Below are positions 102 through 62,487 of a DNA stretch of 64,000 nt, in pieces (position 1 is the first letter of the stretch; each line of letters opens with the position of its first letter). The stretch is from Bacteroidota bacterium (GTDB lineage Bacteria; Bacteroidota; Bacteroidia; Bacteroidales; CAIXZF01): the NCBI GenBank assembly GCA_037132075.1, contig JBAXPV010000007.1:1-64000 (forward strand). The letters run 5' to 3'. A program made the translations under genes and the position numbers. The notes under the pieces are model-generated. The model was given only the letters and a program-made list of their open reading frames with translations. It was not told the DNA's origin and ran no database searches.

Positions 102-1040
102 TTGACCTGGCTGGTGCGTTCCTGGGCAATCAGGAAAGCGGTACTTGATCATCCTAATGAGAGAAGCTCTCACACTATCGCAACACCACGAGGCGGAGGA
201 ATCGCGCTTGCAATCAGCTGGTTTATCGGACTTATTGTCTTGTTTTGGCAAAATGGGATTCCGTCACCATTGTTCTTTGCATTGCTCTGTGGATTGCCGG
301 TCTCGGTGATAGGACTCATAGATGATATGATGACGATCACACCCAAAATCCGACTTCTGATTCAATTGGCTGCCGCAACTGCGGCAATCATTTTTTTAGG
401 CGGAATGCAACAGTTGGATTTGGGGTTTATGATGATTTCAATTCCTTTGGTACTAAGTATTGCTGCGGTTGTCGGAATCGTTTGGTTTACCAATCTGTTT
501 AACTTTCTCGATGGGATCGATGGATATATCAGCCTGGAAGTTATCTTTATTGGCCTGGCTGTTTATTTCTTGTTTGGTGCAGCATTGCCCTTACTGATGG
601 CTGCTGCTACACTGGGATTTTTATTGTGGAACTGGCAGCCGGCAAAGATCTTTATGGGAGATGTTGGCAGTACTCTGTTGGGCTTTTCTGTTGCTGTTTT
701 GGGGATATATTATCAGAATGTTAATTTGGTTTCAATCCCTGTTACATTGATTCTGACATCGGTTTTTTGGTTTGACGCGACAGTGACATTGTTCAGACGA
801 ATGCTGAATAAAGAGAGTCTTCATCTGGCACACCGGAAACATGCCTATCAGCGGATTGTACAGGCAGGATTTAGTCACCAGAAAACAGTGATCTGGGCGT
901 TTGTGCTGAATCTTTTTGGGCTGGGATTGGTGCTGATCGCCAATAGATATGCAAATTATGGATGTTTGTTTTTGCTCCTGGATTTGCTGATGCTGATGCT
1001 AGTGATGAAGTTTGTTGATGGGAAGAAAGCGTTTCGGTAG
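102..1040 (+). CDS. UDP-HexNAc:undecaprenyl-phosphate HexNAc-1-phosphate transferase (glycosyltransferase family 4, MraY/WecA/WbpL-like)
   Basis: Polytopic membrane protein with the motifs DHPNERSSH...PRGGG and NLFNFLDGIDG typical of the MraY/WecA family. The track start is a TTG. The N-terminus is shorter than typical, so the start is uncertain. Confidence 0.8.
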   Translation: MTWLVRSWAIRKAVLDHPNERSSHTIATPRGGGIALAISWFIGLIVLFWQNGIPSPLFFALLCGLPVSVIGLIDDMMTITPKIRLLIQLAAATAAIIFLGGMQQLDLGFMMISIPLVLSIAAVVGIVWFTNLFNFLDGIDGYISLEVIFIGLAVYFLFGAALPLLMAAATLGFLLWNWQPAKIFMGDVGSTLLGFSVAVLGIYYQNVNLVSIPVTLILTSVFWFDATVTLFRRMLNKESLHLAHRKHAYQRIVQAGFSHQKTVIWAFVLNLFGLGLVLIANRYANYGCLFLLLDLLMLMLVMKFVDGKKAFR

Positions 1041-1421: not shown

Positions 1422-3377
1422 ATGAAAAAGCGGTTTTACGATTTTGTTTCCGGCAGATATATGCCACGATGGCTGGTCCTGGTCTTCGACCTGAGCGTTG
1501 CGCTCATCACATTTTACATGGCTTATTTGTTGCGCTTCAACCTGGATATTATAGCAGCTGACAATGCCATTAACCTCGATGTATGGCTGCTGATCACCCC
1601 GGTATTTCTTTGTAGTTTCCTGATCATCAGGCCCTTTGCAGGTATCCTGAGACATAGTACAACCAGTGACGTGGTGAAAATCATCATCGCCATCAGTGCC
1701 GGGTCAATGTTTATTTTTACCGCCTCATTCCTGTCCAGGAGTTTTACACTTCCCCTGGTTTTTAATATTCCTTTGTCAGTGGTCATTATCCACTATGCCC
1801 TGGCGAACCTCGTGCTTGTAGCCTCGAGGCTGATCATCAAAACAGTTTTCCTGGATTATATGATGGAGAGACAGCGTCATAAGGACTTACACCAGGTGAT
1901 GATTTATGGCGCAGGTCAATTGGGACAAATTGCACGGGATGTTATGCTGGCTGATAGCATGACGCAGATAAACCTGGTGGGTTTTATCGACGACAATACT
2001 TTTTTGCAAGGGAAGCGATTGGGAGATATCCCTGTATATTCTCCTGAGAAAGCCTTTGGTAAAATTATTGATCAGTATAAAGTCAATGAGATCATCCTGG
2101 CGATCAGCAAGGATAAGATCAGCATGAAACGGAAGCGTGCGTTTATTGACCTCTGCCTGCAGCATAGCCTGGCGATCAAGGAAATCCCGCCTGTGCATAG
2201 CTGGATTAACGGGGAATTAAATCTGAAAATGATCCGTAAGGTTCGGATTGATGATCTTCTGGAGAGAGATGCGATAAAGTTAGATGTAAATAATATTCGT
2301 GAAGGGCTTCAGGAGTCGACGATACTTGTCACGGGTGGTGCCGGCTCTATCGGCTCAGAGATCGTGCGGCAATTGCTGGCTTTTCATGCAAAAAGAGTGA
2401 TATTGCTCGACCAGGCTGAGACACCGCTGTATGATATCAGGAATGAGATTTTAAGCAATCATCCCGACGCTCAGGTTGACCTGGTGATTGCCGACGTATC
2501 GAATCAGAATCGGCTTCGATCGGTGTTTGAGAAATTCAGGCCGGATATCGTCTTTAATGCCGCTGCCTACAAGCATGTCCCCATGATGGAAGATCATCCG
2601 TATGAGGCCATTAATATCAACGTACGGGGCACGAAATACCTGGCTGACCTGGCTGTGGAATTCGGGGTGAAGAAATTTGTGATGATTTCGACAGACAAGG
2701 CGGTGAATCCAACCAATGTGATGGGAGCCTCGAAACGGATCTGTGAGATGTACATTCAGTCTCTGGTGCATCAGAATGGAATAAAGACTCAGTTTATCAC
2801 GACACGTTTTGGCAATGTGCTGGGATCAAATGGATCAGTGGTGCCTATGTTTAAGAAACAGATCGAAGAAGGCGGGCCGATTACGGTCACGCATCCCAAG
2901 ATCACCCGTTATTTCATGACGATCCCAGAGGCTTGTCAGCTCGTCCTGGAAGCTGGCTTTATGGGCAAAGGCGGTGAGATTTACCTCTTCGACATGGGTG
3001 AGCCGGTTGTGATCTATGAGATGGCCAAGAAAATGATCAGGCTATCAGGGCTTACCTACAAAAAGGATATTGATATTGTATTCACCGGATTACGCCCGGG
3101 AGAGAAGTTATACGAAGAACTCCTGGCGACTGCAGAAGATACCCTCCCGACGCACAATGAGAAAATCATGATCAGCAATGTCGTGGTTCACGAATATGAC
3201 AAGGTGAATGCACAGATCACAGCGATGCTCGAAGCCCTGGATCAGGAGACTGACGAAGCGCTTGTAAGCAGGATGAAAGAGATCGTCCCGGAATATGTGT
3301 CGGAGAACTCGAGGTTTTGTTCTCTGGATGGGAAGGGTTTGGAGTTAGGAGTTAGTGGGGGGGCGCCTAAATTCTAA
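1422..3377 (+). CDS. Polysaccharide biosynthesis protein, membrane-anchored UDP-sugar 4,6-dehydratase (CapD/PglF/WbpM family)
   Basis: N-terminal TM segments are followed by a second Rossmann fold and an SDR domain (TGGAGSIGSE, YKH active-site region, GSNGSV). This is classic CapD/WbpM architecture. Confidence 0.85.
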   Translation: MKKRFYDFVSGRYMPRWLVLVFDLSVALITFYMAYLLRFNLDIIAADNAINLDVWLLITPVFLCSFLIIRPFAGILRHSTTSDVVKIIIAISAGSMFIFTASFLSRSFTLPLVFNIPLSVVIIHYALANLVLVASRLIIKTVFLDYMMERQRHKDLHQVMIYGAGQLGQIARDVMLADSMTQINLVGFIDDNTFLQGKRLGDIPVYSPEKAFGKIIDQYKVNEIILAISKDKISMKRKRAFIDLCLQHSLAIKEIPPVHSWINGELNLKMIRKVRIDDLLERDAIKLDVNNIREGLQESTILVTGGAGSIGSEIVRQLLAFHAKRVILLDQAETPLYDIRNEILSNHPDAQVDLVIADVSNQNRLRSVFEKFRPDIVFNAAAYKHVPMMEDHPYEAININVRGTKYLADLAVEFGVKKFVMISTDKAVNPTNVMGASKRICEMYIQSLVHQNGIKTQFITTRFGNVLGSNGSVVPMFKKQIEEGGPITVTHPKITRYFMTIPEACQLVLEAGFMGKGGEIYLFDMGEPVVIYEMAKKMIRLSGLTYKKDIDIVFTGLRPGEKLYEELLATAEDTLPTHNEKIMISNVVVHEYDKVNAQITAMLEALDQETDEALVSRMKEIVPEYVSENSRFCSLDGKGLELGVSGGAPKF

Positions 3378-3461
3378 TCACAGTGAAGAAGGTTCTGGGG
3401 GCAAATAAAATCCCTCATCAGATTTACGAGTTCCCAAACGTCTAAGGTTTTTATAAATCCC

Positions 3462-3534
3462 TGCGCCCTTGTGCCTTTGCGAGAAAGAAAAACATCTCAC
3501 GCAGAGGCGCAAGGACGCATGGAGTTTTTATTTT
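3462..3534 (+). terminator. Putative rho-independent terminator (imperfect long hairpin plus T-tract) downstream of the dehydratase gene
   Basis: Imperfect inverted repeat tgcgcccttgtgcctttgcgag / cacgcagaggcgcaaggacgca, followed by TTTTTATTTT. Confidence 0.4.
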
Positions 3535-3602
3535 AGGATAGTTTTCTCAAGATAGGGAATTAGTTTCCCGGCGACATCTTTAAAATCCTAACAATTTGTA
3601 AT

Positions 3603-5207
3603 TTGGTCCTTGTGAAAATTTCTGATGACAGTCGGGTAAATACTTTTGAAAGCTTTATAAATCAAGGCAATTCCTTATTTAAGGATCAAGCTCTTTGTAT
3701 AGGTTCTGCAAGCGATGTGATTTTAAGTTATCGTCAATGCCTTGATTTAATTAAACGTGCTTCAGCAAAGCTTTCGGAAGCGGGAATTATGAAAGGAGAT
3801 AAGGTGCTTAGTTATACACCTTTGTCTTTAGAGTCTGTTTTATTGTGTTGGGCTTGTTTATATTGTGGCGTAATTTTCGTTCCGGTTGATCATAATTGGC
3901 CAAAGATCCTGCTTACATTAATATTAGATGAAACGTCTCCAAAACTAATCCTAACAGATTCTGTTCGGATTAATAATGTTCAAAGGAAGGAGATTAATCC
4001 CAAGATTTTGCTTGTGCAAGCTGAGATTTTAGGCAATAGTCCTCTTTTTCTAGAGTGGATTGGAAATGAAACCGAAGCTGATGTTATGCCTCAAGCAATA
4101 GTTGAAAGCAATGATCTTGCAGTAATCCTATATACTTCCGGGTCAACAGGAATTCCTAAAGGTGTTATGTTATCACAAGAGGCATTGCTTAATAGTGGAG
4201 CCTTGTTTGCAGCGCATTTTGGGTGGGTGCGTGGAGACATTTTTCTAAACCTGGGTGACTTACATTCCATGAGTGGATTTAGGAATACTTGTTTGGCGCC
4301 TGTACATGCAGGCGCTTCTTTTATCATTGCCACTGAGACAGAAAGAAATAATGTGTTGTCTGTTCAGGATTTGGTGGAAAAATTCAGGGTTCATTATCTT
4401 GGTGTTGCCCCGACAATGGTTCGCCAGATGAACATTGTCTATTCCGAATCCAGGAAAAATAAACTATCATCGATAAAAGCGATACTTTGTACCGGAGGAA
4501 TGCTTGCTAAAGATCAGCTTACAGCATTCTATGAGCAATATGAAAAGCCAATATTGAATTATTACGGTTTGACAGAAACAGCTGGTATTTGTTTGGGGCA
4601 AAAGGTTGACTCCTTTAATCCACATGACAACAGTATTGGAATAGCAATTGGATGCGAACTTAAAATATTGACAGATCCTGAAATGAATAGTGACAATGAC
4701 TTTGGAGAATTGTTGGTTAAAAGTGATCAGTTAATGCGTGGGTATTATGGTAAAGAATTGGAAACAGATGAAGTATTGAAAGAGGGCTGGTTTTATAGTG
4801 GTGATATTGTGCAAAAAAGGGAGGATGGCTATTATGAGCTCCGGGGAAGGTCGCGCAATATTATAAAAAGCATCAGTTCTGAGTTGATTTATCTGGAGGA
4901 AGTTGAGCTCGCAATAGAAGCGATCCCTTTTGTTAGCGAGTGCTGTTGCTGTAGTTTTGCTCAAAATGAAGAAGATGAGAAAATGATCGCCTTTGTCGTA
5001 ATACAGGATGATTTGGAATTAACTTTACAAGAACTTACAAATAGAATTAGATTAGCTTTAACAGAGAAATTAGGCAAAAACAGATTGCCCTGGTGTTATT
5101 ATTATATAGATAGTTTCCCACGGAATAGCAGTGGTAAGATACTGAGACCAGAACTAAAAGAAATTTTAAATGGATTTATTGAATCACATCGGAAAGGATA
5201 TTTTTAA
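3603..5207 (+). CDS. ANL-superfamily adenylate-forming enzyme (AMP-dependent synthetase/ligase), first of two
   Basis: AMP-binding core motifs LYTSGSTGIPKGV, YGLTETAG and GDIV..R.DGYYELRGRS. The start is uncertain: the track start is TTG and the first in-frame ATG is far downstream. Confidence 0.8.
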   Translation: MVLVKISDDSRVNTFESFINQGNSLFKDQALCIGSASDVILSYRQCLDLIKRASAKLSEAGIMKGDKVLSYTPLSLESVLLCWACLYCGVIFVPVDHNWPKILLTLILDETSPKLILTDSVRINNVQRKEINPKILLVQAEILGNSPLFLEWIGNETEADVMPQAIVESNDLAVILYTSGSTGIPKGVMLSQEALLNSGALFAAHFGWVRGDIFLNLGDLHSMSGFRNTCLAPVHAGASFIIATETERNNVLSVQDLVEKFRVHYLGVAPTMVRQMNIVYSESRKNKLSSIKAILCTGGMLAKDQLTAFYEQYEKPILNYYGLTETAGICLGQKVDSFNPHDNSIGIAIGCELKILTDPEMNSDNDFGELLVKSDQLMRGYYGKELETDEVLKEGWFYSGDIVQKREDGYYELRGRSRNIIKSISSELIYLEEVELAIEAIPFVSECCCCSFAQNEEDEKMIAFVVIQDDLELTLQELTNRIRLALTEKLGKNRLPWCYYYIDSFPRNSSGKILRPELKEILNGFIESHRKGYF

Positions 5208-7005
5208 TGAGGCATTTCATCAAAAGGGAAACAAGATTTTTGTCGATTTTGGTGATCGGAAATTAAGCTATGGCGCATTTAGAACTGAGCTTAGAAAATA
5301 TACCACATATTTCAGGAACGAGGGTCTTACAGCAGGACAAAGAGTTGTAATCTCCTCAAGAGATGAATATTTTATATGTTGTTTTTATCTTTCTTTGATT
5401 GCCAACGGCATAACAGTCATCCTGCTTGACCCAGACAGCGGGACTGAGCGGGCCAAGGCAATCGTGAATCATACCAAGGCATCCTTTCTTTTTTTGGATG
5501 CAGAGATTCAGGAGTTATGGGAAATTCCTGTTGATCAAGACATCCGAGTGATTCCTATTCAGCAGGCCACAGCTGCTAATGTATTTCGGAAGTTATTGCA
5601 GAAGGGAAAATCTCAAAATATATTATTCCCGCAATGTGTCGAAAGGCTTGCCGAATCTGACTTTATCCCTCCGGAGGATCCCGAATCAGACGCGTATATT
5701 TTGTATACGTCAGGAACAACATCTGCACCAAAAGGAGTCCGTATTTCATACAGGGCCTTGTTGTCACACCTGGACAGCCTTTCCCGGGTTTACCAGATGG
5801 ATCATGACTCAAAGATCTTCAACAACCTGATACTCTCGCATGCTGATGGAATTGTCCAGGGTCCTTTGCTGGCATTGTACAATGCAGGGACATTATACCG
5901 GCCTTTCCCATTTTCCATTCAAAATATTGAAGATGCATTCGATATAATATATCGTGAGAAGATAAATTATTGGATAATGGTTCCAACGATGATGGCTTTG
6001 ATATACCAGTTCAAAAAGGACGATAAGGATTGCCTGGATCAAGCAGGTTTTCGAAATGTTATTTCCTGTGGTGCAAAATTGGATGCTGTTTTATGGAAAC
6101 AGTTTGGGGAGAAATTTAACACCAGGATCATTAACGTTTATGGATTAACTGAAACGGTAACCGGTGGAATATATGCAGGACATGATGATAAATCAAATAT
6201 AATTGGAAGTATTGGGAATGCTGTTGATTGTGACATCAGAATATCAGGTATTCACGATGAAGAAATGGGCATTAACGAGACCGGAGAACTATGGATACGT
6301 GGCAGTTTGCTGATGAGCGGATACCTGGATGCTCCTGAAGCCAACCAGGAGGTTTTTGAGGGAGCATGGCTAAAAACCGGGGATATTGGTTACCTGGGTG
6401 AGGATGGGTGTTACAGATTGACAGGGCGGAAGAAGCTAATCATCATCTCGGGTGGCGTTAATATTTTTCCGGAAGAGGTAAGCGAGATTATCCGTACACA
6501 TCCTGCAGTCCAGGATGCAGTGACTTTTGGCATTGAGGACGGGATTTGGGGAGAAATTGTTGCCGCAGCATTGGTTATCAGGGAAAACATAAAGCTTAGT
6601 AATGAAGAAATTGTAGCGTTTTGCCGGGAACATATGGAGGAACAGAAGGTACCTTCCAGGGTCTATTTCCTGGAGGCCCTGCCTTATGGAAGATCCGGCA
6701 AAGTACAAATGCAATTGCTAAGAGAAAAAGTACTTCAAACGGCTGACAATGGGGTTTCCGAGGCTGAGCCAGTTCAGACATTTCTGCAAATTGTTTCCAA
6801 AATTCTTCAATTGCCGCTACACGATCTCAATATGGATCTGCGGTTTGACAACAGTCGTGCCTGGGATTCTATTTCGCACCTTATGTTGGTTGTAGCCATG
6901 GAAAAACACTATCAAATCGAATTTACAGCCCTTGAAGTGATGAACGTTAAAAGCCTTGCTGATTTGTTTTCAATTATAAAAGGAAAGCAGTTTGAAGCAA
7001 ACTGA
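5170..7005 (+). CDS. ANL adenylate-forming enzyme fused to a C-terminal acyl/peptidyl carrier protein (PP-binding) domain
   Basis: Motifs ILYTSGTTSAPKGV, YGLTETV and a LPYGRSGKV C-terminal lysine region. An extra ~80 aa C-terminal domain follows, with a phosphopantetheine-attachment-like motif RAWDSISHL(M)L...A.E..Y.IEF. The gene overlaps the upstream gene by 38 nt. Confidence 0.8.
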   Translation: MDLLNHIGKDIFNEAFHQKGNKIFVDFGDRKLSYGAFRTELRKYTTYFRNEGLTAGQRVVISSRDEYFICCFYLSLIANGITVILLDPDSGTERAKAIVNHTKASFLFLDAEIQELWEIPVDQDIRVIPIQQATAANVFRKLLQKGKSQNILFPQCVERLAESDFIPPEDPESDAYILYTSGTTSAPKGVRISYRALLSHLDSLSRVYQMDHDSKIFNNLILSHADGIVQGPLLALYNAGTLYRPFPFSIQNIEDAFDIIYREKINYWIMVPTMMALIYQFKKDDKDCLDQAGFRNVISCGAKLDAVLWKQFGEKFNTRIINVYGLTETVTGGIYAGHDDKSNIIGSIGNAVDCDIRISGIHDEEMGINETGELWIRGSLLMSGYLDAPEANQEVFEGAWLKTGDIGYLGEDGCYRLTGRKKLIIISGGVNIFPEEVSEIIRTHPAVQDAVTFGIEDGIWGEIVAAALVIRENIKLSNEEIVAFCREHMEEQKVPSRVYFLEALPYGRSGKVQMQLLREKVLQTADNGVSEAEPVQTFLQIVSKILQLPLHDLNMDLRFDNSRAWDSISHLMLVVAMEKHYQIEFTALEVMNVKSLADLFSIIKGKQFEAN

Positions 7006-7912
7006 ACAAAAGACCGGAATGCCGCTCTTTCTGTGGCTGGTAAGCGTACTCGTTGCAACAGGATTTCTTGTTTCTGCTTTTTTTTTACTTCAGTTCCGCG
7101 ACAAAGAATTAGGTATAAAAGGTGTGCAAAATGTCACTGTAACTCAATACACTAATGCCGGAAATGACAGTCTGGACGGGTATTTCCTTGGGACTTCCCT
7201 GACAAGTTGCGCCTTAATTCAATATAGAGCCCTGGATAGCCTGATTCGCATTCGGAAAGAAAAATTCAGGTATAAGTTTTTAATCGCACCTGGAGCGACC
7301 CTTAAAGATTATAATTACACAATTGATGAAATCAGAAGGTTGAGACCCAAATGTCTTTTTATAGAATCAAATACCGCATGTGTAGATATGAGTGGGCAGG
7401 ACTCATGGAGTATGATCAATTTTAGGATCAGGATGGCCAGGGTTCCGGTTTATTTATTTGGGATGGGTTTTAATGCGTTGCATCTGTTTAAAAGTTATGT
7501 TCCGGCCGATTTTGCTGAACGGCATCGAAAAAAAATCTATTTGGATGAACAGAATCTATTAGACGACTTTGAAGTTGGGAAACGCTTCAGGGTAAGAGAT
7601 CCCGGGGAATTCCCTCTTTGGGAGAATTTTTTTAAGGAAGCAGGAAGTTTGGGGATTAAAATTTATTTTCTTGATTTGCCCCGTTCCATGGAAGCGGAGC
7701 ATGGCCTGCCACGAAAATTTTCCGAAAAATTTAAAACCCATATTGCAACATATAATAAACAGTATCATATAGAATATATTCATTTCCCAATCCCTTTGAG
7801 AAGGGAAGCTTACTTCATTGACCGGGCTCATTTTAACAGATCGGGAAGTAAAATATACAGCATGTGGTTGACCCACGAATTCGAAACCAGGAAAATAATA
7901 ACAAGGAGATAA
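6992..7912 (+). CDS. Membrane-anchored SGNH-like protein, putative DltD/AlgX/AlgJ-type acyltransfer partner of the MBOAT
   Basis: N-terminal TM helix. There is a GNDSLDG block (resembles SGNH block I GDSxx) and a C-terminal FIDRAHFN block (DxxH, SGNH block V). It sits immediately upstream of, and translationally coupled to, the MBOAT gene. The functional call is inferential. Confidence 0.5.
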   Translation: MKQTEQKTGMPLFLWLVSVLVATGFLVSAFFLLQFRDKELGIKGVQNVTVTQYTNAGNDSLDGYFLGTSLTSCALIQYRALDSLIRIRKEKFRYKFLIAPGATLKDYNYTIDEIRRLRPKCLFIESNTACVDMSGQDSWSMINFRIRMARVPVYLFGMGFNALHLFKSYVPADFAERHRKKIYLDEQNLLDDFEVGKRFRVRDPGEFPLWENFFKEAGSLGIKIYFLDLPRSMEAEHGLPRKFSEKFKTHIATYNKQYHIEYIHFPIPLRREAYFIDRAHFNRSGSKIYSMWLTHEFETRKIITRR

Positions 7913-9021
7913 TGGATTTTGTTTCTTACATATATTTAGCTTGGATTCTATTGTTTGCAGGGTTTGCATGGATTCCTTCATACAAATATAGTCCGTATGT
8001 TTTTGCAGTTTTTGGGATTGTTTTTATTATGATCGCATCCCCGATTTCGGCTGCGGTATTGCTTGCTGAATCCACGCTGGCTTTCGTTGTTGCCCGAAGA
8101 CATTCTCTTTCACATTGGAGCAGTACTTTTATCAGTGTTTTGTTTGTCTTTTCAGCTTTTCTTTTGTGTAAGTACTTTGCATTAAAAGGGATGTTTGCAT
8201 TACCAATTGGAATTTCCTATTTTACTTTCAGGCTGATACATTATCTCCAGGAAGCCTACAGGCAAAAGCTCAGACAACATACGTTTCCGGAGTTTATGGC
8301 TTATATGACCTTCTTCCCGACTTTCCTGGTAGGGCCGATCAATCTGTTCCCGGATTTTTTAGTCAATTTGCGCAGACGGAAATGGGATAGCCACGAATTC
8401 TCCCGGGGACTGGAAAGGCTTGTCTATGGCTACGCCCAGTTGATAATCATCGGGAATTATTTGCTTAATTATTTATTAAAGGCCTGGGTCAACACGAACC
8501 TGCAAAATACAGGAACGATGACGACTTTGGTCATTCATTCTGTTCAACTTTGGCTCGATTTGTATATTCGCTTTTCTGCTTATAGTAGTATTGCCATTGG
8601 GATCGCTGCAATGGCGGGTTTCAGCGTACCGGAAAATTTTCGTTATCCATTTCTGGCAAGCAACATCCGTGATTTCTGGCAACGATGGCATATGTCACTG
8701 ACAAATTGGTGCAGAGATTATATATTCATACCGCTTGCTTCCCACAGCAGAAACGCATTTCTTGCCATCGTTGCCACGATGATCACAATAGGCGTTTGGC
8801 ATGAATTGAGTTTTCGTTATATATTGTGGGGCATTTATCATGCTCTTGGGATTATATTCTATGAGAATTATGCACGTTTTACAAAGGGGAGATTTCCGGA
8901 TCGTAAAAGATTAACGATGATTAGAAAGGCTGTTGGAATGATTATAACGCTTGTTTTTGTGATTATGAGTTTCCCGCTTACGACAATAATTAACGATTAT
9001 ATAATGAGTTTTGTACGATGA
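7912..9021 (+). CDS. MBOAT-family membrane-bound O-acyltransferase (DltB/AlgI/PatA-like)
   Basis: Polytopic protein with the MBOAT signature region FWQRWHMSLTNWCRDYIFIPL (invariant His) and the C-terminal GVWHELSFRYILWGIYHALG (W-H-G / WG..HG motif). The start is chosen at ATG 7912, which overlaps the upstream stop. The track ORF starts at 7864. Confidence 0.8.
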   Translation: MDFVSYIYLAWILLFAGFAWIPSYKYSPYVFAVFGIVFIMIASPISAAVLLAESTLAFVVARRHSLSHWSSTFISVLFVFSAFLLCKYFALKGMFALPIGISYFTFRLIHYLQEAYRQKLRQHTFPEFMAYMTFFPTFLVGPINLFPDFLVNLRRRKWDSHEFSRGLERLVYGYAQLIIIGNYLLNYLLKAWVNTNLQNTGTMTTLVIHSVQLWLDLYIRFSAYSSIAIGIAAMAGFSVPENFRYPFLASNIRDFWQRWHMSLTNWCRDYIFIPLASHSRNAFLAIVATMITIGVWHELSFRYILWGIYHALGIIFYENYARFTKGRFPDRKRLTMIRKAVGMIITLVFVIMSFPLTTIINDYIMSFVR

Positions 9022-9123
9022 TGAATTTGAATTATTTTATCGTTACTCATGGTTTTGGACGGTCGTCCTTCGATTCCGCTCAGGATGGCTAAGGCAAACC
9101 TAATTGAAAAAAAATAAAAAAAT

Positions 9124-9267
9124 ATGACTTATCATTTTTTATGCAAGCTTTTCAATTCAAAAATAGCTGCCTGGATTACTGTTTTATGGTTTGCTTTTTT
9201 ATTCATTGCGATGTTTGCCTTGTCGGCATATCGTGAAGATGCTTTTCTATATCTCAATTTTAAATAG
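9124..9267 (+). CDS. Small hydrophobic ORF (47 aa, MTYHFLCKLFNSKIAAWITVLWFAFLFIAMFALSAYREDAFLYLNFK) immediately upstream of the radical SAM gene. It is a candidate precursor peptide or small membrane protein.
   Basis: Uninterrupted ATG-initiated ORF ending 7 nt before the radical SAM start. It is absent from the track only because it is under 60 aa. No homology-based support is available. Confidence 0.25.
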   Translation: MTYHFLCKLFNSKIAAWITVLWFAFLFIAMFALSAYREDAFLYLNFK

Positions 9268-9273
9268 GTATTA

Positions 9274-10230
9274 ATGGATGAAAAAGTCAGAAAACTGAAT
9301 CAGTCAGAACTTCCCTCTTTTCTGAAGAGCCGCGAGGGATGGGGGAAGCTGTTTGAGATGAAACGTTCGCCCTACCCGCATCTGCATCAGATTGAACCTA
9401 CCAATGTATGTCCATATCATTGTATCATGTGTCCCAGGGGCAATGAAATGACTCGTAAGACCGGACATATGGATTTTGCAGTTTTCAGCAAAGTCATTGA
9501 GGAAGTGGCTACTTATCCTGACGAGATTAAGAGGAAAGAGATCGAATTATTTCATTTCGGGGAATCCCTGATTCATCCGCTAATAGCCGAAATGAATGAA
9601 TATGCTTCATCAAAAGGATTAAAAACTTTGCTTTCAGTGAATGCCATTGAATTGAATCAGGAAATTGCGCACAAATTGATTTCCGGTAAGGCAGGGAAAA
9701 TTATTGTTTCACTTGATGGTTTTGATGCCAAAAGTTTTCAGGAGATCCGTGGTCGTAAGATTGATTATGATCAGGCGATTGAAAATATAGTACAGGCGGA
9801 TTCTTTGATAAAATCAATGAAAGCCACGACAAGACTTACTGTCAGGATGATTGCATTGAATCAGAATATGCATATGACGGAGTTCTTTAAGGATTTTTGG
9901 TCATCGAAAAATATTGAGGTAGAGATACGGCCATTTTTTCCCTGGGGTGAAAAAGAGATGGTAAAATTGGGGGTTTATGAAAAATATCCTCCTTTCATGC
10001 CATGTCCTTTTGCCTGGCAATACCTTGTGGTGCAATGGAATGGTGATGTTGTGGCTTGTTGTCGTGATTATAATGCAGAAAACCTCATGGGCAATGTTAA
10101 AGACGAGACGCTCCTTCAAATCTGGAATGGAGAAAAATACGCCAAATTCAGGAGCAGTATGATTGCTGGCGAATACGGGAATTCTATTTGTGGCCCGTGT
10201 ATGGCGCTTTACTATACTGAAGAAAGTTAG
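9274..10230 (+). CDS. Radical SAM enzyme with a C-terminal SPASM/twitch-like auxiliary Fe-S domain
   Basis: Canonical CxxxCxxC motif (CPYHCIMC) near the N-terminus. C-terminal cysteine pattern C-x12-G-x4-C-C ... CGPC with a GNV..ETLLQIWN block, as seen in SPASM/twitch maturases. Confidence 0.8.
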   Translation: MDEKVRKLNQSELPSFLKSREGWGKLFEMKRSPYPHLHQIEPTNVCPYHCIMCPRGNEMTRKTGHMDFAVFSKVIEEVATYPDEIKRKEIELFHFGESLIHPLIAEMNEYASSKGLKTLLSVNAIELNQEIAHKLISGKAGKIIVSLDGFDAKSFQEIRGRKIDYDQAIENIVQADSLIKSMKATTRLTVRMIALNQNMHMTEFFKDFWSSKNIEVEIRPFFPWGEKEMVKLGVYEKYPPFMPCPFAWQYLVVQWNGDVVACCRDYNAENLMGNVKDETLLQIWNGEKYAKFRSSMIAGEYGNSICGPCMALYYTEES

Positions 10231-10260: not shown

Positions 10261-11607
10261 TCACCCAGTCGCCTGGTCCCCCATTCCCCCAGTCGCCTTG
10301 TCGTCCTTTTTAGAGATCAATTTAAGCAAGTAACCCGACAACAAGCCACCCGTACTCTCATCCCCCTGCACGAGGAAGTCAGGCGTGACCTTGATCTGGC
10401 CCATGGCGATTTGTTTGGCGATTTCGATTGCGGTGACGCCTTGCTGGCCGATGGATTTGTTCTGGAGTTCGTAGGCTTTGGCGGTAGACTCGCCGATCGC
10501 GAGGATCTTTGATCCTTCAGCATTCCCGATGGCGATGATTCCTTTGGCTTCACCTTCTGCACGGATCCTTGTGCTCTCAGCTTCGCCTTCTGCGAAGCGT
10601 ATGGTTTTGAGCTTTGTCTGCTCGGCTATCTTAACCCCGATTTCTGCTTCCATGAGGATCTTCTGGAGTTCTGCTTCGGAACGTGTCTTTTCTGTGGCAA
10701 TCCTTGTCTGTTCTGCTTTCTGTTGCTCCTGGTACATGGCCATTTGCTGCTGGGCGATGATTTTTTTCGTCTGGGTATCCATGAGTTCCTGGGGCAGGAC
10801 GATCTGGCAGATGAGGACAGAGACACATTCAACATGGTATTTCTCGAGTTCGAGGCGGGTCCGTTCTTCGGCTTTACGTTGTTCTTCCTGCCGATCCTGG
10901 AGGAAGTTCATGGCAGACGTAGAAGAGGCCTGGTTGCGGAAGCTGGAGTCGATCATGGGGTGGATGACGTGGTTGATGAGGTTGTCGATGGAGCCGATTT
11001 TGGCCACCATATACGGTGCCTGGTCGGGTCTGACACGGATGATGACTTTGACGGAGACGCTGATCTCGAAGCCGTCGCGTGAAACGACTTTGAGCTGATC
11101 GAATTTCGTTTCCTGCGCATCGTCCCAGTCGATGGTGATGTTGGTGGTATCGACGATATAGATGATGAAAGCCCTTCGGTTGATATAATAGATCCCCGGG
11201 CCTGCGACTTCTTTCTGGATGCCACGGTAGCCTTTGGGCACGACATAGCGTTCGATGCCGTATTTCAGACGTTGCTCGGCTTCTGAAAGTGTGGTTGTAT
11301 CGGAAGCTTGCGGTGGTGCTCCGACCATGTCTTTGTCGAGGTTTGCGATGATATGCTGGGGTTCTTCTCCAACGTTTGAGATGACGACAGCAACCTGGCC
11401 TCTTTCCACGACGGCGACTTCATCGAGCTCAGTCTTGAACATCAAAGGGTTGACGTAATAGGTTCCGGGTTTCAGAACATCGAACTGGGGACCGCGCTGG
11501 CCACCGTTTTCGAGGAATTTCGAGACATTTTGAAAGTCGTTGTGGTTGGGTACTGACTTGGCAACATATTCTGTTTCCGGCAGGGGTTCTCCGTCGAGTG
11601 CTGTCAC
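10261..11607 (-). CDS. Flotillin-like SPFH/band-7 protein, C-terminal fragment (YqiK family). It is the downstream part of a frameshift-split gene.
   Basis: SPFH domain plus a long EA-rich coiled coil (AEGEAESTRIRAEGEAKG...). The N-terminus carries the third copy of the repeat motif KIGLVTALDGEPL...FLENGGQRGPQ..LKPGTYYVNP, found twice in the upstream ORF. Confidence 0.7.
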   Translation of the reverse strand: MTALDGEPLPETEYVAKSVPNHNDFQNVSKFLENGGQRGPQFDVLKPGTYYVNPLMFKTELDEVAVVERGQVAVVISNVGEEPQHIIANLDKDMVGAPPQASDTTTLSEAEQRLKYGIERYVVPKGYRGIQKEVAGPGIYYINRRAFIIYIVDTTNITIDWDDAQETKFDQLKVVSRDGFEISVSVKVIIRVRPDQAPYMVAKIGSIDNLINHVIHPMIDSSFRNQASSTSAMNFLQDRQEEQRKAEERTRLELEKYHVECVSVLICQIVLPQELMDTQTKKIIAQQQMAMYQEQQKAEQTRIATEKTRSEAELQKILMEAEIGVKIAEQTKLKTIRFAEGEAESTRIRAEGEAKGIIAIGNAEGSKILAIGESTAKAYELQNKSIGQQGVTAIEIAKQIAMGQIKVTPDFLVQGDESTGGLLSGYLLKLISKKDDKATGGMGDQATG

Positions 11608-12326
11608 AAGACCGATTTTCTGTGAAGGGATGACTGTGGCTTCTTTGATCTCAACCCTGAAGAGTCGAGGTTGATACGGTAGGTACCGGGGAGTAAGATC
11701 TGAGACTGGGGCCCTTTTTGGCCGCCATTTTTCAAGAAAGACTCACCACTTTCGAAGTTATTATGACCTTCGACAAATTTCGAAAGCAGGCGGCCGGGTT
11801 GGATCGGATCGCCATCCATCGAAGTAACCAGTCCGATCTGCCCTTTGTCGATGACGACTGAGGGCATTTTTTTTACCATGAACAGAATTGGGTTTATCCT
11901 GAAGAATCCAGGAGGCAGGATGCTGATCTGAGGTCCTTTTTCCCCGCCATTCTGAATGAAGGCTTCGCCATCCTGGAAGGAGTTATGGTTTTCTATGACT
12001 TTGGCAAAGATTTTTCCGGGAGGAACCGGGCTGCCATCGATAGATTCGACGATTCCGACTTCGTTTTCAGAGATGACGGTGAATTCGAGTTTGCGGGCTT
12101 TGTAGATAAAGGGGACAAGCAGATGTAGTCCTGGTCCGAGGGTACGTGCCTGGACTCCCATTTCGTTTTTCATGGCGATGACACGACCCTGGGGCATTTT
12201 GGTGCCGAACCAACGGCGTTCGAGAACAGCGATGCCACGACCGCCAACGATGACAATGGTGTTAAGGATGACGACGACGACGAGCAGCAGTATTACTGCT
12301 AAGATGATTAAGTTAAGGGGTAGCAT
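11604..12326 (-). CDS. Flotillin-like protein, N-terminal fragment (TM helix plus two YqiK-type repeats). It is the upstream part of the frameshift-split gene.
   Basis: N-terminal TM helix, then two copies of the motif G.VES.DG.P..PG......V..HN.F..GE.F..NGG.KGPQ...LPPG..RINP. Reading across about 11667-11672 in the -1 frame joins seamlessly to the downstream ORF. Confidence 0.7.
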   Translation of the reverse strand: MLPLNLIILAVILLLVVVVILNTIVIVGGRGIAVLERRWFGTKMPQGRVIAMKNEMGVQARTLGPGLHLLVPFIYKARKLEFTVISENEVGIVESIDGSPVPPGKIFAKVIENHNSFQDGEAFIQNGGEKGPQISILPPGFFRINPILFMVKKMPSVVIDKGQIGLVTSMDGDPIQPGRLLSKFVEGHNNFESGESFLKNGGQKGPQSQILLPGTYRINLDSSGLRSKKPQSSLHRKSVL

Positions 12327-12588
12327 AATGTATATTTTTGATTTTGAATGGTTGACTTTGGACTGAGGTATTTTGACTTTATGATTGGGTTTTGCCCCTG
12401 TGTATTCGGTTCTAAAAGTACTAAAAAACTAAGTGATTTTGTTAGAGAAATACACATTGAAATATGAAAGCAAAGGAAAAAAAGCATTAATTTTATCCCA
12501 TTGTTCTTTTTTTAAGGGGGGTGGAGCAAACCAATTTTATTTTTAGGTGTCTTAAATAGATCAACCAATAATTTTGATTGAAACGTAA

Positions 12589-15500
12589 ATGCATAGGATT
12601 TATATAATTATCCTGTTTTTGTTACAATTTTTTTCCCTGAAGGCTCAGCCACCACCCTGTGTTGCGAATCCTTTGGCAGATGATTTTTGTGCCTCGGCTA
12701 CTGCAATCTGCAACCTGAATGGCTATTGCGGGAATACAAGTGCAACCTATACGAACACTGTCAGCCCGACAAATCTTACAAATGAGACGAATACGCCACT
12801 GGGTGCGGTATTTTGTGCTACGATTCAAAACAACTCCTGGCTGAAATTCATTGCGGATTCCACTACGGCCATTTTTGACGTCTGGTGTAGCAATTGTGCG
12901 CACAACCACGGGATACAGATGCAGATTTATAAGACAACGAATTGTTACAACTTTACGTCTGTCTCGAACTGTTGGAATCCCGGGTATCCGACGAATGGTC
13001 AGATTATTGCCACAGGACTAATTGTTGGTAGTGTCTATTATTTCATGATTGACGGCACTGCCGGTGATAATTGTGATTATGTCATTGCCTGTAGCGTTGG
13101 TGTTAATGCGGCTCCTGCAGTTTCTCTGAATCAAAATATTTGTGAAGGCATGACAGCAACAGTAGCCGCCACGGGTGGTCTGACGTATTTTTGGACTGCG
13201 AATCCTCCGGATCCTGCAGTGACAGCACAGCAGACCCAGGCAGTTGTCACTGTAACGCCTTCTGTGACAACAGTATATACAGTCATTGTTAACAATCCCG
13301 GGCTGAATACTTTTTGTGCTACTGACACAACGATTTTAAGTACCATCATCACTGTAAATAATGTTGCAGGCCAGATCAGCAATGTCACCGCGGCTCATTG
13401 TAATCTGAACAACGGTGCCATCACTGTTGCAGGTACAGGCGGAACCGGAACGTATGCTTACCTGTGGAACACTACGCCGGCACAAAGCACGCCTACCATT
13501 GCGGGATTGGCACCGGGCTCATATACCGTGACGGTTAGTAGCGGGGGGTGCAACAAAACAGTTACTGCGATAGTGCCGATGATTCCGGCACCTGTGGCAT
13601 CGGTGGCTTCTTTTTCTGATGCACATTGTAACCAGGCCGATGGTAGTGCTGTCGTCCAGATCAATGGCGGCAGCGCTCCATTTACCTATGTATGGAGCAG
13701 TGTCCCTGTTCAGAATACCAATCACCTGCAAAATGTTATCGCAGGGACGTATACGCTTACCGTCACCGACCAGGAGAACTGTACGTCAAATCTCACTGTC
13801 ACCCTGGCCAATGTGCCTGGCCCAACAGTCGCTTTAGCCACGATTACGCCGGTATGTATCAATGGCGGCACCATCAATCTTTCAGGAGGGACTCCGGTCG
13901 GAGGGACTTACAGCGGACCAGGTGTTCTTGGTAGTATTTTTGATCCTGTGGTTGTGGGCGCTGGAACCTACAACATCACCTATGCCTATACGGATGCTTT
14001 CGGCTGTAGCGGATCTGCCATGAAAACGCTGCAGGTGCTTGCATTGCCTGTGCTTAGCTTTCTTACATTAACTTCAGCCTGTGTTGATGCTCCTGTCATT
14101 ACCCTCACTATGGCAACACCTTCAGGAGGTACCTATTCAGGTACAGGTGTTAGTGCCGGTGTCTTTAACCCTGCCACTGCCGGTGCCGGAATTCATATTC
14201 TACTTTATACATTTACAGGCCCAAATGGCTGTACCAATGAGATAACACAGAGCATCACCGTAAATGCGTTACCTATAGTTTCTTTAAGTCCGATACCGGG
14301 AACCTGTATCAATGCGCCCCCACAGGCGCTTGCAGGCGGAACGCCTGTGGGGGGAACTTATTCCGGGACAGGTGTGTCAGGCGGGATGTTTAGTCCTGCA
14401 AGTTCCGGATTGGGAACTTTTACGATAACCTATGTCTATAAGGATGGCAATCTATGTATCAGCTCTGCACAGCAGACGATTTTAGTGTCTCCAACCCCGA
14501 ATGTGACCTTCAATACGATCCCGAACATTTGTTTGAATGCCGGGGTCACCCCGATGCAGGGGGGGAGCCCTGTTGGTGGCATCTACTCAGGTGTGGGAGT
14601 CAACAATAATCTCTTTAGTCCTGCAGTCACAGGGACAGGCACTTTCCAGGTCTTTTATAATTATTCTGTTTTGGGATGTGTTGGTGCTGACACGCAGACG
14701 ATCACTGTGTTGCCAATCCCGACAGCATCATTTCCTGCAGTAGGGGAGTTATGCGTCGATGCGGCCCCGATCACGCTCAGCGGGGGATTGCCTTCGGGAG
14801 GAACTTATGTAGGGACGGGAGTAAACGGCACGAGCTTTGATCCTGCCACAAGCGGAGCCGGCACTTTTAGTCTGGGCTATGCCTGGTCAGCCGCCAATGG
14901 CTGCACGGATACTGCCTTTCAGCCTATGTTGGTGCGCCCTTTGCCGGTGATTACCTATACGCCTATTGCGGGGCGATGTATCAGTGACAGTCCGTTTGGA
15001 TTTTCTGAAGCGACGCCAACGGGCGGGACCTATAGCGGGACGGGTATCGTGAATGGTATTTTCGACCCTGCTGCTGCCGGTGTAGGTACTTATTCCATCC
15101 TGTATACCTATACTGATCCTTTTGGATGTACAAACAATGCTTCCCGGGATCTCACCATAAATCCGCTGCCACTTCAGGTGCCTTTGAGCGGAGGTGGTGT
15201 CATTTGCGATGGCATTGGAGGGATGCCTGTGGGTTTGGATAGTTCTCAACCGGGGATCAATTATTATTTGATCGTGAATGGCTGGGTAACGTTACAGGCT
15301 TATCCGGGCACGGGTGCAGCCCTCAGCTTTGGCAACCAGAGTGCGCAAGGCAATTATATTGTGAAAGCGGTGGACTCAATCACAGGATGTGTGAATATGA
15401 TTCTGGATACGGTTCATATCAAGCTGTTGCCAAAACCGGTGGTGAACCTGGGTTTGCCGATGTATCTGTGTGATTTGCCACAGATCGTTCTGGATGGCGG

Positions 15501-23706: not shown

Positions 23707-24489
23707 ATGCAGCCTATGAAAATAATCCGTTTCCCATTGCTTTTAATCAGCTTTATTTTATGTTGGCAAGGCAATCTTTTTGGACAGCCTAAAAAACTTT
23801 TTGATCCCATCAATTCTGATATCAGCAATTATATTCCACCATTAAGCGCCCTTCTTGATTCTGCGATCCTTCATAATCCAAATGTTGCATTCAGGGATCT
23901 TCAGACGACAATAAACAATTGCAAATTTAGAGCGGCACAAATAGACTGGACAAAGAACATTGGTTTTTTAACGGACATCCGTTATGGGACTTTTGACAAT
24001 TATTCAACGGATTATACCGGAGGGACTGGCCCCGTAAACAACATGACCACACGTACTGAGCTGCGGTGGGGTTATGGCGCTTATATCAGTCTCCCGATTT
24101 TTACTGTAATGAACAGGAGAAACCTGGTTAGGATTTCAAAATATGAGATGGAGCAGGCCAAAAGTATGGCCGATGCCCAGCGTAGTGAATTGACGCAGGA
24201 AATAATCAGGCAGTATAATGATCTCATTTTGAAGCAACGACTGTTAAGAATCAAGTCAAAAAGTTTTGAAACGGCCCGTATAAATCTGCAAATGGCGGAA
24301 AAGGAGTTCTCAAATGGTTCGATCAACGTTACAGAATTATCACAGATTTCTATGGCAGTGTCGGGTTCGGAGAGCGATTTTGAAACGGCCCGTATGGATC
24401 TGCTGACAGCTTATCTTATCCTGGAAGAATTGGTTGGCATTAAGTTTAACCTGACAAACTCAATACAAGGTACGAATGAAGTTAATTGA
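23707..24489 (+). CDS. Secreted TolC-like (outer-membrane-efflux-protein-like) half-length protein, possible outer-membrane export partner
   Basis: Signal peptide. LLDSAILHNPNV..A...L...R.A....Y.P and coiled-coil helices reminiscent of OEP/TolC repeats, but only ~260 aa. It overlaps the Wzc-like gene by 14 nt. Confidence 0.35.
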   Translation: MQPMKIIRFPLLLISFILCWQGNLFGQPKKLFDPINSDISNYIPPLSALLDSAILHNPNVAFRDLQTTINNCKFRAAQIDWTKNIGFLTDIRYGTFDNYSTDYTGGTGPVNNMTTRTELRWGYGAYISLPIFTVMNRRNLVRISKYEMEQAKSMADAQRSELTQEIIRQYNDLILKQRLLRIKSKSFETARINLQMAEKEFSNGSINVTELSQISMAVSGSESDFETARMDLLTAYLILEELVGIKFNLTNSIQGTNEVN

Positions 24490-47416: not shown

Positions 47417-47465
47417 AACGAATAGATTTAATCAATTTAAATGTAAATATACTGTTTTCTTCTTT

Positions 47466-48923: not shown

Positions 48924-48938
48924 AACAGAATCAATGGA

Positions 48939-51788: not shown

Positions 51789-51858
51789 ATCAAAATAAAT
51801 CGGTTCTCTAACATTCTCTCTGCGGAACTCCGCGTTCTCCGTTTCTCAGCGGTGAGTC
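51686..51858. repeat. About 170-bp imperfect palindromic element (about 55-bp inverted arms around an AT-rich core) between susD and the GH5 gene
   Basis: Left arm gattcaccgcggaggcggggagaacgcaaagtttcgcagagggtttgattgaacat. Reverse complement of the right arm is gactcaccgctgagaaacggagaacgcggagttccgcagagagaatgttagagaacc. Confidence 0.45.
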
Positions 51859-51864
51859 TTAAAA

Positions 51865-53364: not shown

Positions 53365-53374
53365 TTTTTAGGGC

Positions 53375-56533: not shown

Positions 56534-56589
56534 GGTTGCTGAATTTTGATTTATATTAATATGAGGGTTATTGGGATTCATTTCTCTTT

Positions 56590-58047: not shown

Positions 58048-58061
58048 GGGGAATCTCCGGA

Positions 58062-59528: not shown

Positions 59529-59538
59529 AGTAAACATA

Positions 59539-62469: not shown

Positions 62470-62487
62470 ATTTAAAGGGGTTAGATA

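Follow-up and report, generated by a model that had tools for sequence, protein, structure and literature searches.

We analysed a 64,000-nucleotide stretch from Bacteroidota bacterium (GTDB lineage Bacteria; Bacteroidota; Bacteroidia; Bacteroidales; CAIXZF01), comprising positions 1 to 64,000 of contig JBAXPV010000007.1 in assembly GCA_037132075.1 and hereafter called the window. An original prediction, made from the letters of this stretch, had described four genes near its start as a complete Dlt-type acylation cassette inside a polysaccharide locus. At positions 3603-10230 we found six genes, all on the plus strand, in the order ANL1, ANL2-carrier, SGNH protein, MBOAT, microprotein and radical S-adenosylmethionine (SAM)/SPASM enzyme. 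From their sequences we consider it reasonably probable that they constitute a self-contained module, whose task would be extracytoplasmic acylation with a carrier protein as the donor. The genes are as follows (aa, amino acids):

3603..5207, plus strand: ANL1, a free-standing adenylate-forming enzyme of 534 aa without a carrier domain (Pfam AMP-binding, 1.4e-61; AMP-binding_C, 7e-6)
5170..7005, plus strand: ANL2-CP, an adenylate-forming enzyme of 611 aa with a C-terminal carrier domain resembling an acyl carrier protein (ACP) (Pfam AMP-binding, 9.9e-56; AMP-binding_C, 1.1e-14)
6992..7912, plus strand: a membrane-anchored SGNH-fold protein of 306 aa, the predicted functional counterpart of DltD or PatB (fold search, conserved residues)
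7912..9021, plus strand: a short DltB-like MBOAT of 369 aa that has no acyl-shuttle motif fused to it (Pfam MBOAT, 3e-23)
9124..9267, plus strand: a DltX-like membrane microprotein of 47 aa (gene call on all contigs of this organism; homologues, motif)
9274..10230, plus strand: a radical SAM/SPASM (twitch-like) enzyme of 318 aa, whose gene closes the module (Pfam Radical_SAM at residues 40-181, SPASM at 244-309)

ANL1 and ANL2 overlap by 38 nt and ANL2 and the SGNH gene by 14 nt, the SGNH and MBOAT genes have one base in common, and the radical SAM gene begins 6 nt 3′ of the microprotein gene. The 102 nt between the MBOAT and microprotein genes form the widest intergenic gap within the module, and an A-rich leader lies 5′ of the microprotein gene. 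Gene callers predicted the same open reading frames (ORFs) on five independent contigs of this organism. The four co-directional, overlapping or abutting ORFs described earlier were thus recovered, although the cassette that they were said to complete continues with two further conserved genes on the same strand. For ANL1, a TTG at 3603 and a GTG at 3612 are both candidate starts, and for the MBOAT gene the ATG at 7912 is backed by homologues starting MEFVS or MSFVS. A GTG at 7864 was considered as the MBOAT start and rejected because the homologues begin at the ATG.

A gap of 225 nt lies between ANL1 and an upstream gene for a CapD-type dehydratase, and it contains one further feature:

3458-3520, plus strand: a near-perfect terminator-like hairpin of about 19 bp, followed by the U-run UUUUUAUUUU

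When positions 3440-3545 were folded as RNA, the predicted energy was -42.4 kcal/mol (z -6.3), and none of 200 shuffles was equally stable. The hairpin is a likely intrinsic terminator and a likely upstream border of the module's transcription unit; given this hairpin and U-run within the gap, the module is therefore probably transcribed as a unit of its own. On its 3′ side the neighbour is a convergent gene. A sigma-70 promoter scan returned 23 sites against 19.7 expected by chance, with a consensus that does not cover Bacteroidota promoters. An anti-phage defence system was also considered and rejected: in a PADLOC scan five of the module proteins had no match, and the radical SAM protein had only a generic weak match to pVip (1.2e-10).

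The assignment of the fourth protein to the DltB/AlgI-like MBOATs was confirmed, and its closest characterised relative is DltB. The best PDB match was DltB (6bug, E 4.5e-29), with GVWHE of the window protein aligned to GFWHG, which contains DltB His336. The equivalent of that residue is His297 (WHE, 8800-8802), and His260 (WHMSL, 8689-8691) is also conserved; in an alignment of the module MBOATs, both H297 (WHE) and H260 (WHxSL) are invariant. Against the NCBIfam model LTA_dltB (TIGR04091) the protein scored 167.4 bits, below the equivalog cut-off of 375. Its C-terminus reads ...NDYIMSFVR and contains no FXYXXF motif, the motif whose tyrosine binds the acyl group covalently in PatA and, acting in trans, in DltX (PMC12148441).

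With an alignment of four module-type MBOATs as the query, a scan covering one genome for each species gave 80 loci. A fused C-terminal FXYXXF motif of the FIYFRF or FIYFQF type was present in 57 of the 80 sampled MBOATs, with protein lengths of 450-552 aa. The module-type MBOATs are 368-370 aa long and never carry the fused motif, and each is followed by an ORF of 45-48 aa that does carry it. Motif-less MBOATs were also seen in metagenome-assembled genomes (MAGs) of Acidobacteriota and Chloroflexota, where a small ORF ending in FIYRGF or FIYQGF lies directly upstream, in the canonical dltX position (L022 7383-7616, L073 2012-2128, L083 2620-2820). About eight more MBOATs of the Anaerolineae/Chloroflexia type, 473-490 aa long, likewise have no fused motif.

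The microprotein of the window (MTYHFLCKLFNSKIAAWITVLWFAFLFIAMFALSAYREDAFLYLNFK) has a basic N-terminus, one hydrophobic helix and the C-terminal sequence F41-L-Y43-L-N-F46-K. Tyr43, encoded at 9250-9252, is the predicted acyl acceptor, and judged from the distribution of charges the motif would face the extracytoplasmic side. DltX of B. thuringiensis, a protein of 48 aa, has the same layout and ends in ...STFIYNEF (PMC5541007). Homologues of 45-48 aa are encoded directly 3′ of the MBOAT gene in L007, L010, L011, L012, L015, L090, L091 and L092, and F41, Y43 and W22 are invariant among nine homologues from several phyla. The C-terminal motif is FVYINF in L007 and L011, FQYMNF in L010, FLYMDF in L012, FIYLDF in L091, FLYLNL in L092, FIYWDN in L090 and FRYGRY in L015.

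The third protein had no match in Pfam (DltD, PF04914, included), NCBIfam or the PDB, where both the sequence and a profile were compared, and its SGNH fold was identified by structure search alone. The AlphaFold model (pLDDT 89.6, pTM 0.84) has a transmembrane helix (residues 12-39) and, C-terminal to it, an alpha/beta domain. Of the earlier description as an SGNH/DltD-AlgX-like transmembrane protein, the fold and the membrane anchor therefore stand, and membership of Pfam DltD does not. A word-indexed protein search returned the protein itself and one 37% relative, a profile of 51 sequences returned three proteins, and an exhaustive phmmer search returned 107 cluster representatives of about 300 aa. 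In the alignment of 51 sequences G67 and H280 are invariant, and S69, D277, P119, E125 and R231 are each present in at least 90%. The conserved blocks are G-[ST]-S-L-T (G67-T-S69-L-T in the window) and D-x-x-H (D277-x-x-H280), and in the model Ser69 starts the helix after the first core strand while D277 and H280 lie in the loop preceding the last helix. We accordingly predict Ser69 (7196-7198), Asp277 (7820-7822) and His280 (7829-7831) as the catalytic residues. The DRAH half of the active site proposed earlier corresponds to D277-x-x-H280 and was retained. Its GNDS half (residues 57-60) was rejected as SGNH block I because it is not conserved, the nearest relative, P0002, having LNRK in its place. 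A few members of the family weakly match Pfam GDSL, DUF1574 and DltD.

Both adenylate-forming enzymes, and the carrier domain fused to the second, were correctly recognised in the original prediction, and its remark that two such enzymes with a fused carrier are unusual holds. The two enzymes share only 26% identity. Each keeps the core motifs including the A10 lysine, and the ANL1 motifs YTSGSTGIPKG, YYGLTET, SGD, GR and SGK are kept across phyla. Pfam PP-binding covers residues 537-599 of ANL2, with Ser567 (6868-6870) as the predicted phosphopantetheinylated residue. The domain was matched by the tails of 13 of 13 homologous ANL2 proteins, in which W-D-S, and with it this serine, is invariant. 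When a carrier profile was compared with the PDB, the best match was a putative ACP (2lml, 1.4e-12) that has the same WDSLSH motif.

As for the substrates, the best PDB relatives of ANL1 are 4-coumarate-CoA ligase, the LgrA A-domain and FadD13, and the nearest characterised relatives of ANL2 are oxalate-CoA ligase and FadD13. For both enzymes the best NCBIfam and PDB matches are ligases that form fatty-acyl, oxalyl or 4-coumaroyl thioesters of coenzyme A (CoA), and DltA was not among these best matches. In the A4 region of ANL2, 'LILSHADGIVQG' aligns with 'LPLFHVHGLLAG' of oxalate-CoA ligase and also with FadD13, and SHADG is aligned to FHVHG of oxalate-CoA ligase. ANL1 has a serine opposite the aspartate of FDGS in LgrA, the Asp235-equivalent that binds the alpha-amino group in amino-acid A domains. 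As both enzymes are of the acyl-CoA-synthetase type and the amino-binding aspartate is absent, an aminoacyl substituent, one of the options offered earlier, is unlikely, and the substrates are predicted with moderate confidence to be carboxylic acids that lack an alpha-amino group. On the A4-motif alignments we rejected D-alanine and other alpha-amino acids as the substrate, likewise with only moderate confidence.

Some variation was seen among the ANL proteins of other genomes. Bacteroidota-type ANL1 proteins share an unusual A4-region motif, NLGDLH(S/A)MSG(F/L)RNT, and a conserved C-terminal ...R(K/R)xYF, and the Zetaproteobacteria-type ANL1 (L090, L094) has an N-terminus about 80 aa shorter. 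In L091 the ANL2 gene is split (4953-5291 and 5258-6793), which suggests a frameshift.

The radical SAM protein, with its CxxxCxxC motif at 9409-9432, is the most conserved product of the module, with identities of 72% to the L011 protein and 50-59% to those of Proteobacteria and Desulfobacterota. Its model (pLDDT 93.5) matched the folds of SuiB (19.9), BlsE (19.1), BtrN (19.0), anSME (18.7) and DesII (18.7), so that SPASM/twitch enzymes of the peptide type and of the sugar or small-molecule type score alike. No NCBIfam model was matched at cut-off. The Radical_SAM and SPASM domains fill the 318 aa and leave no room for a peptide-recognition (RRE) domain. We consider it most likely that this enzyme is cytoplasmic and tailors the acid or the carrier-bound acyl group, although it may act on a precursor of the acceptor instead. 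A plasmid search with this protein found only proteins of 30-35% identity, in an unrelated Azospirillum plasmid context.

The gene order of the module recurs in Bacteroidota (L011, L012), Zetaproteobacteria (Mariprofundus sp. NF, GCA_013387455.1, L090), other Pseudomonadota (a MAG, L091) and Desulfobacterota (a Desulfobacterales MAG, L092), each with all six genes. When the contexts of four distant radical SAM homologues were inspected, three had the full order (L090, L091 and L092) and the fourth (L097) had a rearranged, partly truncated set within 5 kb. In L010 the other five genes are present and the radical SAM gene is absent. The genes for ANL-carrier, SGNH-like protein and MBOAT adjoin wherever the contig is long enough (L001, L006-L012, L094, L095), and this adjacency is kept even where the SGNH proteins are only 22-27% identical.

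Related but distinct sets were encountered as well. A Nitrosomonas MAG encodes an ANL-carrier, a sulfotransferase, a 385-aa MBOAT and a GDSL protein (L013 1151-6379), and a Pseudomonadota MAG encodes two ANLs, an MBOAT and a 346-aa membrane protein (L014 4071-10320). In a Maricaulis MAG, an MBOAT is accompanied by the 45-aa microprotein ending in FRYGRY and by a 363-aa membrane protein (L015 301-2691). Carrier-dependent relays with short MBOATs thus seem to form a wider group in Gram-negative bacteria. Immediately upstream of the module in L091 (500-3211) lie extra genes, among them those for a methyltransferase, a C_GCAxxG_C_C protein and a further radical SAM protein that has an HMPTM zinc ribbon, together with more AMP-binding ORFs in fragments.

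Our preferred reading, which we hold to be reasonably probable, is a relay that acylates a molecule outside the cytoplasm. A more far-reaching reading, held tentatively and at somewhat less than an even chance, is that the module installs a previously undescribed, non-acetyl, non-D-alanyl ester on envelope glycans of diderm bacteria, the ANL enzymes and the radical SAM enzyme building or tailoring the acyl group on the carrier and the MBOAT, microprotein and SGNH protein exporting it. In the relay the two acyl-CoA-synthetase-like ANLs would activate one or two carboxylic acids in the cytoplasm, and the acyl group would be loaded as a thioester on the phosphopantetheine arm at Ser567 of the ACP-like domain of ANL2. 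The MBOAT, through His297, would take it from the carrier and pass it through the inner membrane onto Tyr43 of the microprotein (FLYLNF). Because the MBOAT has no fused motif and a separate microprotein has FXYXXF, the latter would supply the shuttle motif, as DltX does. The microprotein would then hand the acyl group to Ser69 of the membrane-anchored periplasmic SGNH protein, a transfer from acyl-Tyr on FXYXXF to an SGNH serine that has been shown experimentally for Dlt and PatAB (PMC12148441). Finally, the SGNH protein would esterify an acceptor on the periplasmic side. The Dlt-type logic proposed originally, from adenylation through carrier and MBOAT to an SGNH partner, agrees with this scheme, and it is strengthened by the DltB-like character of the MBOAT and by the motif of the microprotein.

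For the acceptor in this Bacteroidota genome, our best guess from the neighbouring genes is a glycan, either undecaprenyl-linked or a nascent polysaccharide. The two neighbouring glycan genes and a more distant polysaccharide locus are the following:

102-1040, plus strand: a GT4/WecA-like phosphoglycosyl transferase gene, context only (Pfam Glycos_transf_4, 5e-31)
1422-3377, plus strand: a CapD/PglF-type membrane 4,6-dehydratase gene, context only (Pfam Polysacc_synt_2, 7.6e-118)
18732-40965: a Wzy-type exopolysaccharide (EPS) locus with UDP-glucose dehydrogenase, epimerases/dehydratases, Bac_transf, an OEP-like protein, Wzy_C, and GT1 and GT2 glycosyltransferases
18732-40965, further genes of the same locus: a hexapeptide acetyltransferase, an FkbM methyltransferase and a protein with a sorting tail of the type IX secretion system (T9SS)

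The first two are the only polysaccharide genes upstream of the module in the window, and beyond the GT4 gene the contig extends for only about 100 bp. Downstream of the module come convergent SPFH genes, followed by those for an SprB/CHU_C protein and an M1 peptidase, and the EPS locus begins 8.5 kb away, past unrelated genes. The statement that the cassette lies inside a polysaccharide locus is accordingly correct as far as the GT4 and CapD genes directly upstream are concerned, but not in view of the terminator between them and the module and the distance to the EPS locus. Two large ORFs of that locus (24476-26992 and 27004-28380) had no Pfam match at 1e-5.

Other features of the window were recorded in passing. 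The SPFH region (10261-12326, minus strand) consists of two adjacent SPFH/Band_7 ORFs of 448 and 240 aa with a 4-nt overlap, and the same region is a single gene of 688 aa on contig L003, from another assembly of this organism, which suggests a one-base frameshift difference due to strain variation or assembly error. A polysaccharide-utilisation locus at 43814-63543 (minus strand) contains a hybrid two-component regulator, two GH30 enzymes, two SusC/SusD pairs, a GH5 enzyme with CBM6/CBM35 and a T9SS tail, and a GH16 enzyme with a T9SS tail, a composition that suggests a beta-glucan target. T9SS sorting domains and the SusC/D polysaccharide-utilisation locus are Bacteroidota hallmarks within the window.

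Several observations weigh against the preferred reading. In the proposed relay neither the second ANL nor the radical SAM enzyme has an evident reason to be present. Two distant microproteins deviate at the last motif position (FLYLNL and FIYWDN), Pfam DltX (PF12459) matches only two of the nine microproteins (E 0.033), and hhalign aligned the microprotein with B. thuringiensis DltX over just six residues (DAFLYL/STFIYN, E 0.056). As DltX homology is not demonstrable by Pfam or hhalign, we call the microprotein a DltX-like analogue, a term that refers to its motif, size, predicted topology and genomic logic. With regard to the acceptor, the terminator-like hairpin parts the module from the two upstream glycan genes in the window, and glycan neighbours are absent from five of eight module contexts (L010, L012, L090, L091, L092). 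On account of these five contexts the acceptor may be some widespread component of the envelope and not the local polysaccharide.

That alternative keeps the relay as proposed and directs it to peptidoglycan, lipopolysaccharide or lipid A-core, a periplasmic glucan or a membrane lipid, with a horizontally mobile module that only sits beside glycan genes here; we regard it as possible but lean against it. The six-gene order is kept across four phyla while the neighbours change, and no further gene is consistently linked to the module. In L090 the neighbours are SLT/LysM and solute-binding genes. In L092 PIN/PhdYeFM and ParE toxin-antitoxin pairs border the module together with Eco57I/XhoI-type restriction genes (2228-2921 and 10321-14709), a mobile or defence-island-like neighbourhood that fits horizontal transfer. 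Within the window, the hairpin after the CapD gene and the distance to the main EPS locus point the same way. The GT4 and CapD genes directly upstream speak against it, as do two other genomes. A glycan locus surrounds the module in L011, with a TupA-like ATP-grasp gene and two GT1 genes upstream and GT2, WecA-like, GDP-mannose dehydratase, epimerase and CapD genes downstream, and in L094 a GT2 gene lies directly upstream. The cassette is therefore not absent from all related polysaccharide loci, which would have argued for an unrelated, horizontally parked operon. The idea that the local polysaccharide is the acceptor finds its neighbourhood repeated in L011 and L094 but not in the five other contexts, and the link between the module and glycan genes is facultative.

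MBOATs also acylate lipids and small alcohols, and the product might accordingly be a lipid or small molecule. Here the ANLs and the ACP domain would supply an MBOAT that O-acylates a lipid or an alcohol, tailoring of the product would fall to the radical SAM enzyme, and the SGNH protein would have esterase or thioesterase activity. The fatty or short acyl-CoA-synthetase type of both ANLs and the many genomic contexts without glycan genes would suit such a product, and for the SGNH protein hydrolytic GDSL esterases are at least as close a match as DltD or PatB. We nevertheless judge it improbable: the nearest characterised relative of the MBOAT is DltB and not a lipid MBOAT, the SGNH protein has a DltD/PatB-like N-terminal membrane anchor, and outside polymer-acylating MBOAT-SGNH relays no strictly conserved microprotein with a C-terminal F-x-Y is known.

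The position of a small ORF 6 nt upstream of a SPASM radical SAM gene would also fit a precursor peptide and its maturase, that is, a ribosomally synthesised and post-translationally modified peptide or lipopeptide that the ANL-carrier, MBOAT and SGNH protein acylate or process. This we hold to be very unlikely, as the microprotein persists 3′ of the MBOAT gene where the radical SAM gene is missing (L010, L015), is hydrophobic and single-helical with DltX-like size and topology and an acyl-shuttle motif, and accompanies precisely those MBOATs that have no fused motif, while the radical SAM protein has no space for an RRE domain. Least credible of all is that a Gram-negative bacterium has taken up a true dltXABCD orthologue for D-alanylation, of which Dickeya and Pectobacterium are reported examples. 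In NCBIfam and the PDB the MBOAT indeed finds DltB as its best match, and the module has a carrier domain, a partner with the SGNH fold and a motif like that of DltX, but the ANLs are unlike DltA (their top matches are acyl-CoA ligases and the amino-binding aspartate is absent), the carrier is an ACP-like fused domain, the DltB score of 167 bits falls short of the equivalog cut-off, the SGNH protein of the window has no Pfam DltD match, the microprotein gene is downstream of the MBOAT gene, and the module adds a radical SAM gene and a second ANL.

If the more far-reaching reading, an undescribed ester on envelope glycans of diderm bacteria, is true, carrier-dependent MBOAT relays with DltX-like microproteins would not be a speciality of Gram-positive teichoic acids, but a widespread and horizontally mobile means of decorating cell surfaces. 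A real relay would point to a novel ester substituent on surface glycans or another envelope component, for which Bacteroidota, iron-oxidising Zetaproteobacteria and relatives of sulfate reducers are the candidate organisms. Such a substituent could affect surface charge, resistance to phages and antimicrobials, and the prediction of glycan structures. How MBOATs choose donors bound to a carrier could also be studied in this compact system, with S567, H297, Y43 and S69 as sites for point mutants.

No description of this six-gene set was found in the searchable literature. Compared with DltXABCD, which D-alanylates teichoic acids in Firmicutes, the module shares a predicted carrier-protein-dependent donor and a short, DltB-like MBOAT that keeps the catalytic histidine and has no fused shuttle motif. 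It also shares a separate microprotein of about 47 aa with one predicted transmembrane helix and a C-terminal F-x-Y-x-x-F, and an SGNH partner with an N-terminal membrane helix and Ser...Asp-x-x-His. It differs in that a pair of acyl-CoA-synthetase-type ANLs takes the place of the single D-alanine ligase, and an ACP-like carrier fused to ANL2 that of the free DltC. The microprotein gene is downstream of the MBOAT gene, whereas it comes first in the dlt operon. The module further adds the radical SAM/SPASM gene, its hosts are diderms without teichoic acids, and none of its proteins reaches the family thresholds of DltB, DltD or DltX.

Partial parallels exist for the cytoplasmic front end. AlmEFG, which attaches glycine to lipid A in Vibrio cholerae, and the ANL-plus-ACP cassettes for O-antigen N-acylation use an ANL and a carrier to supply a non-acetyl acyl group for a Gram-negative envelope glycolipid, and their acyltransferases are of the LpxL or GNAT type and act on the cytoplasmic face. 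We know of no MBOAT, SGNH protein, Tyr-shuttle relay or radical SAM enzyme in these cassettes. Compact SPASM/twitch enzymes act on sugars or small molecules (BtrN, BlsE, DesII) or on proteins and peptides (anSME, SuiB), and the sequence similarity of the module enzyme to them is restricted to the SPASM/twitch region (BtrN, 2.6e-10). To our knowledge, no association of such radical SAM enzymes with an MBOAT-SGNH relay has been reported.

With PatA/PatB, AlgI/AlgJ/AlgX and WssH/WssI, the module shares the Gram-negative envelope and, by prediction, the pairing of an MBOAT with a periplasmic SGNH transferase; in those systems the acyl group travels via the tyrosine of FXYXXF (PMC12148441), as we propose here. 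MBOATs of the PatA/AlgI/WssH type are about 450-550 aa long and carry the motif fused on extra C-terminal helices, whereas the module has it on a separate microprotein. The PatAB, Alg and Wss systems use acyl-CoA and have neither carrier nor microprotein (PMC12148441), whereas the module encodes its own adenylating enzymes and carrier. In the division drawn in 2025, all MBOAT pathways other than Dlt use acyl-CoA, have no DltX-like microprotein and no carrier protein, and carry the motif fused to the MBOAT (PMC12148441). With its carrier domain and its separate shuttle microprotein in Gram-negative phyla, the module would therefore break this Dlt-only division. The simplest reading is that it represents a carrier-dependent MBOAT/Tyr-shuttle/SGNH relay that resembles Dlt in mechanism but starts from other cytoplasmic enzymes and includes a radical SAM enzyme.

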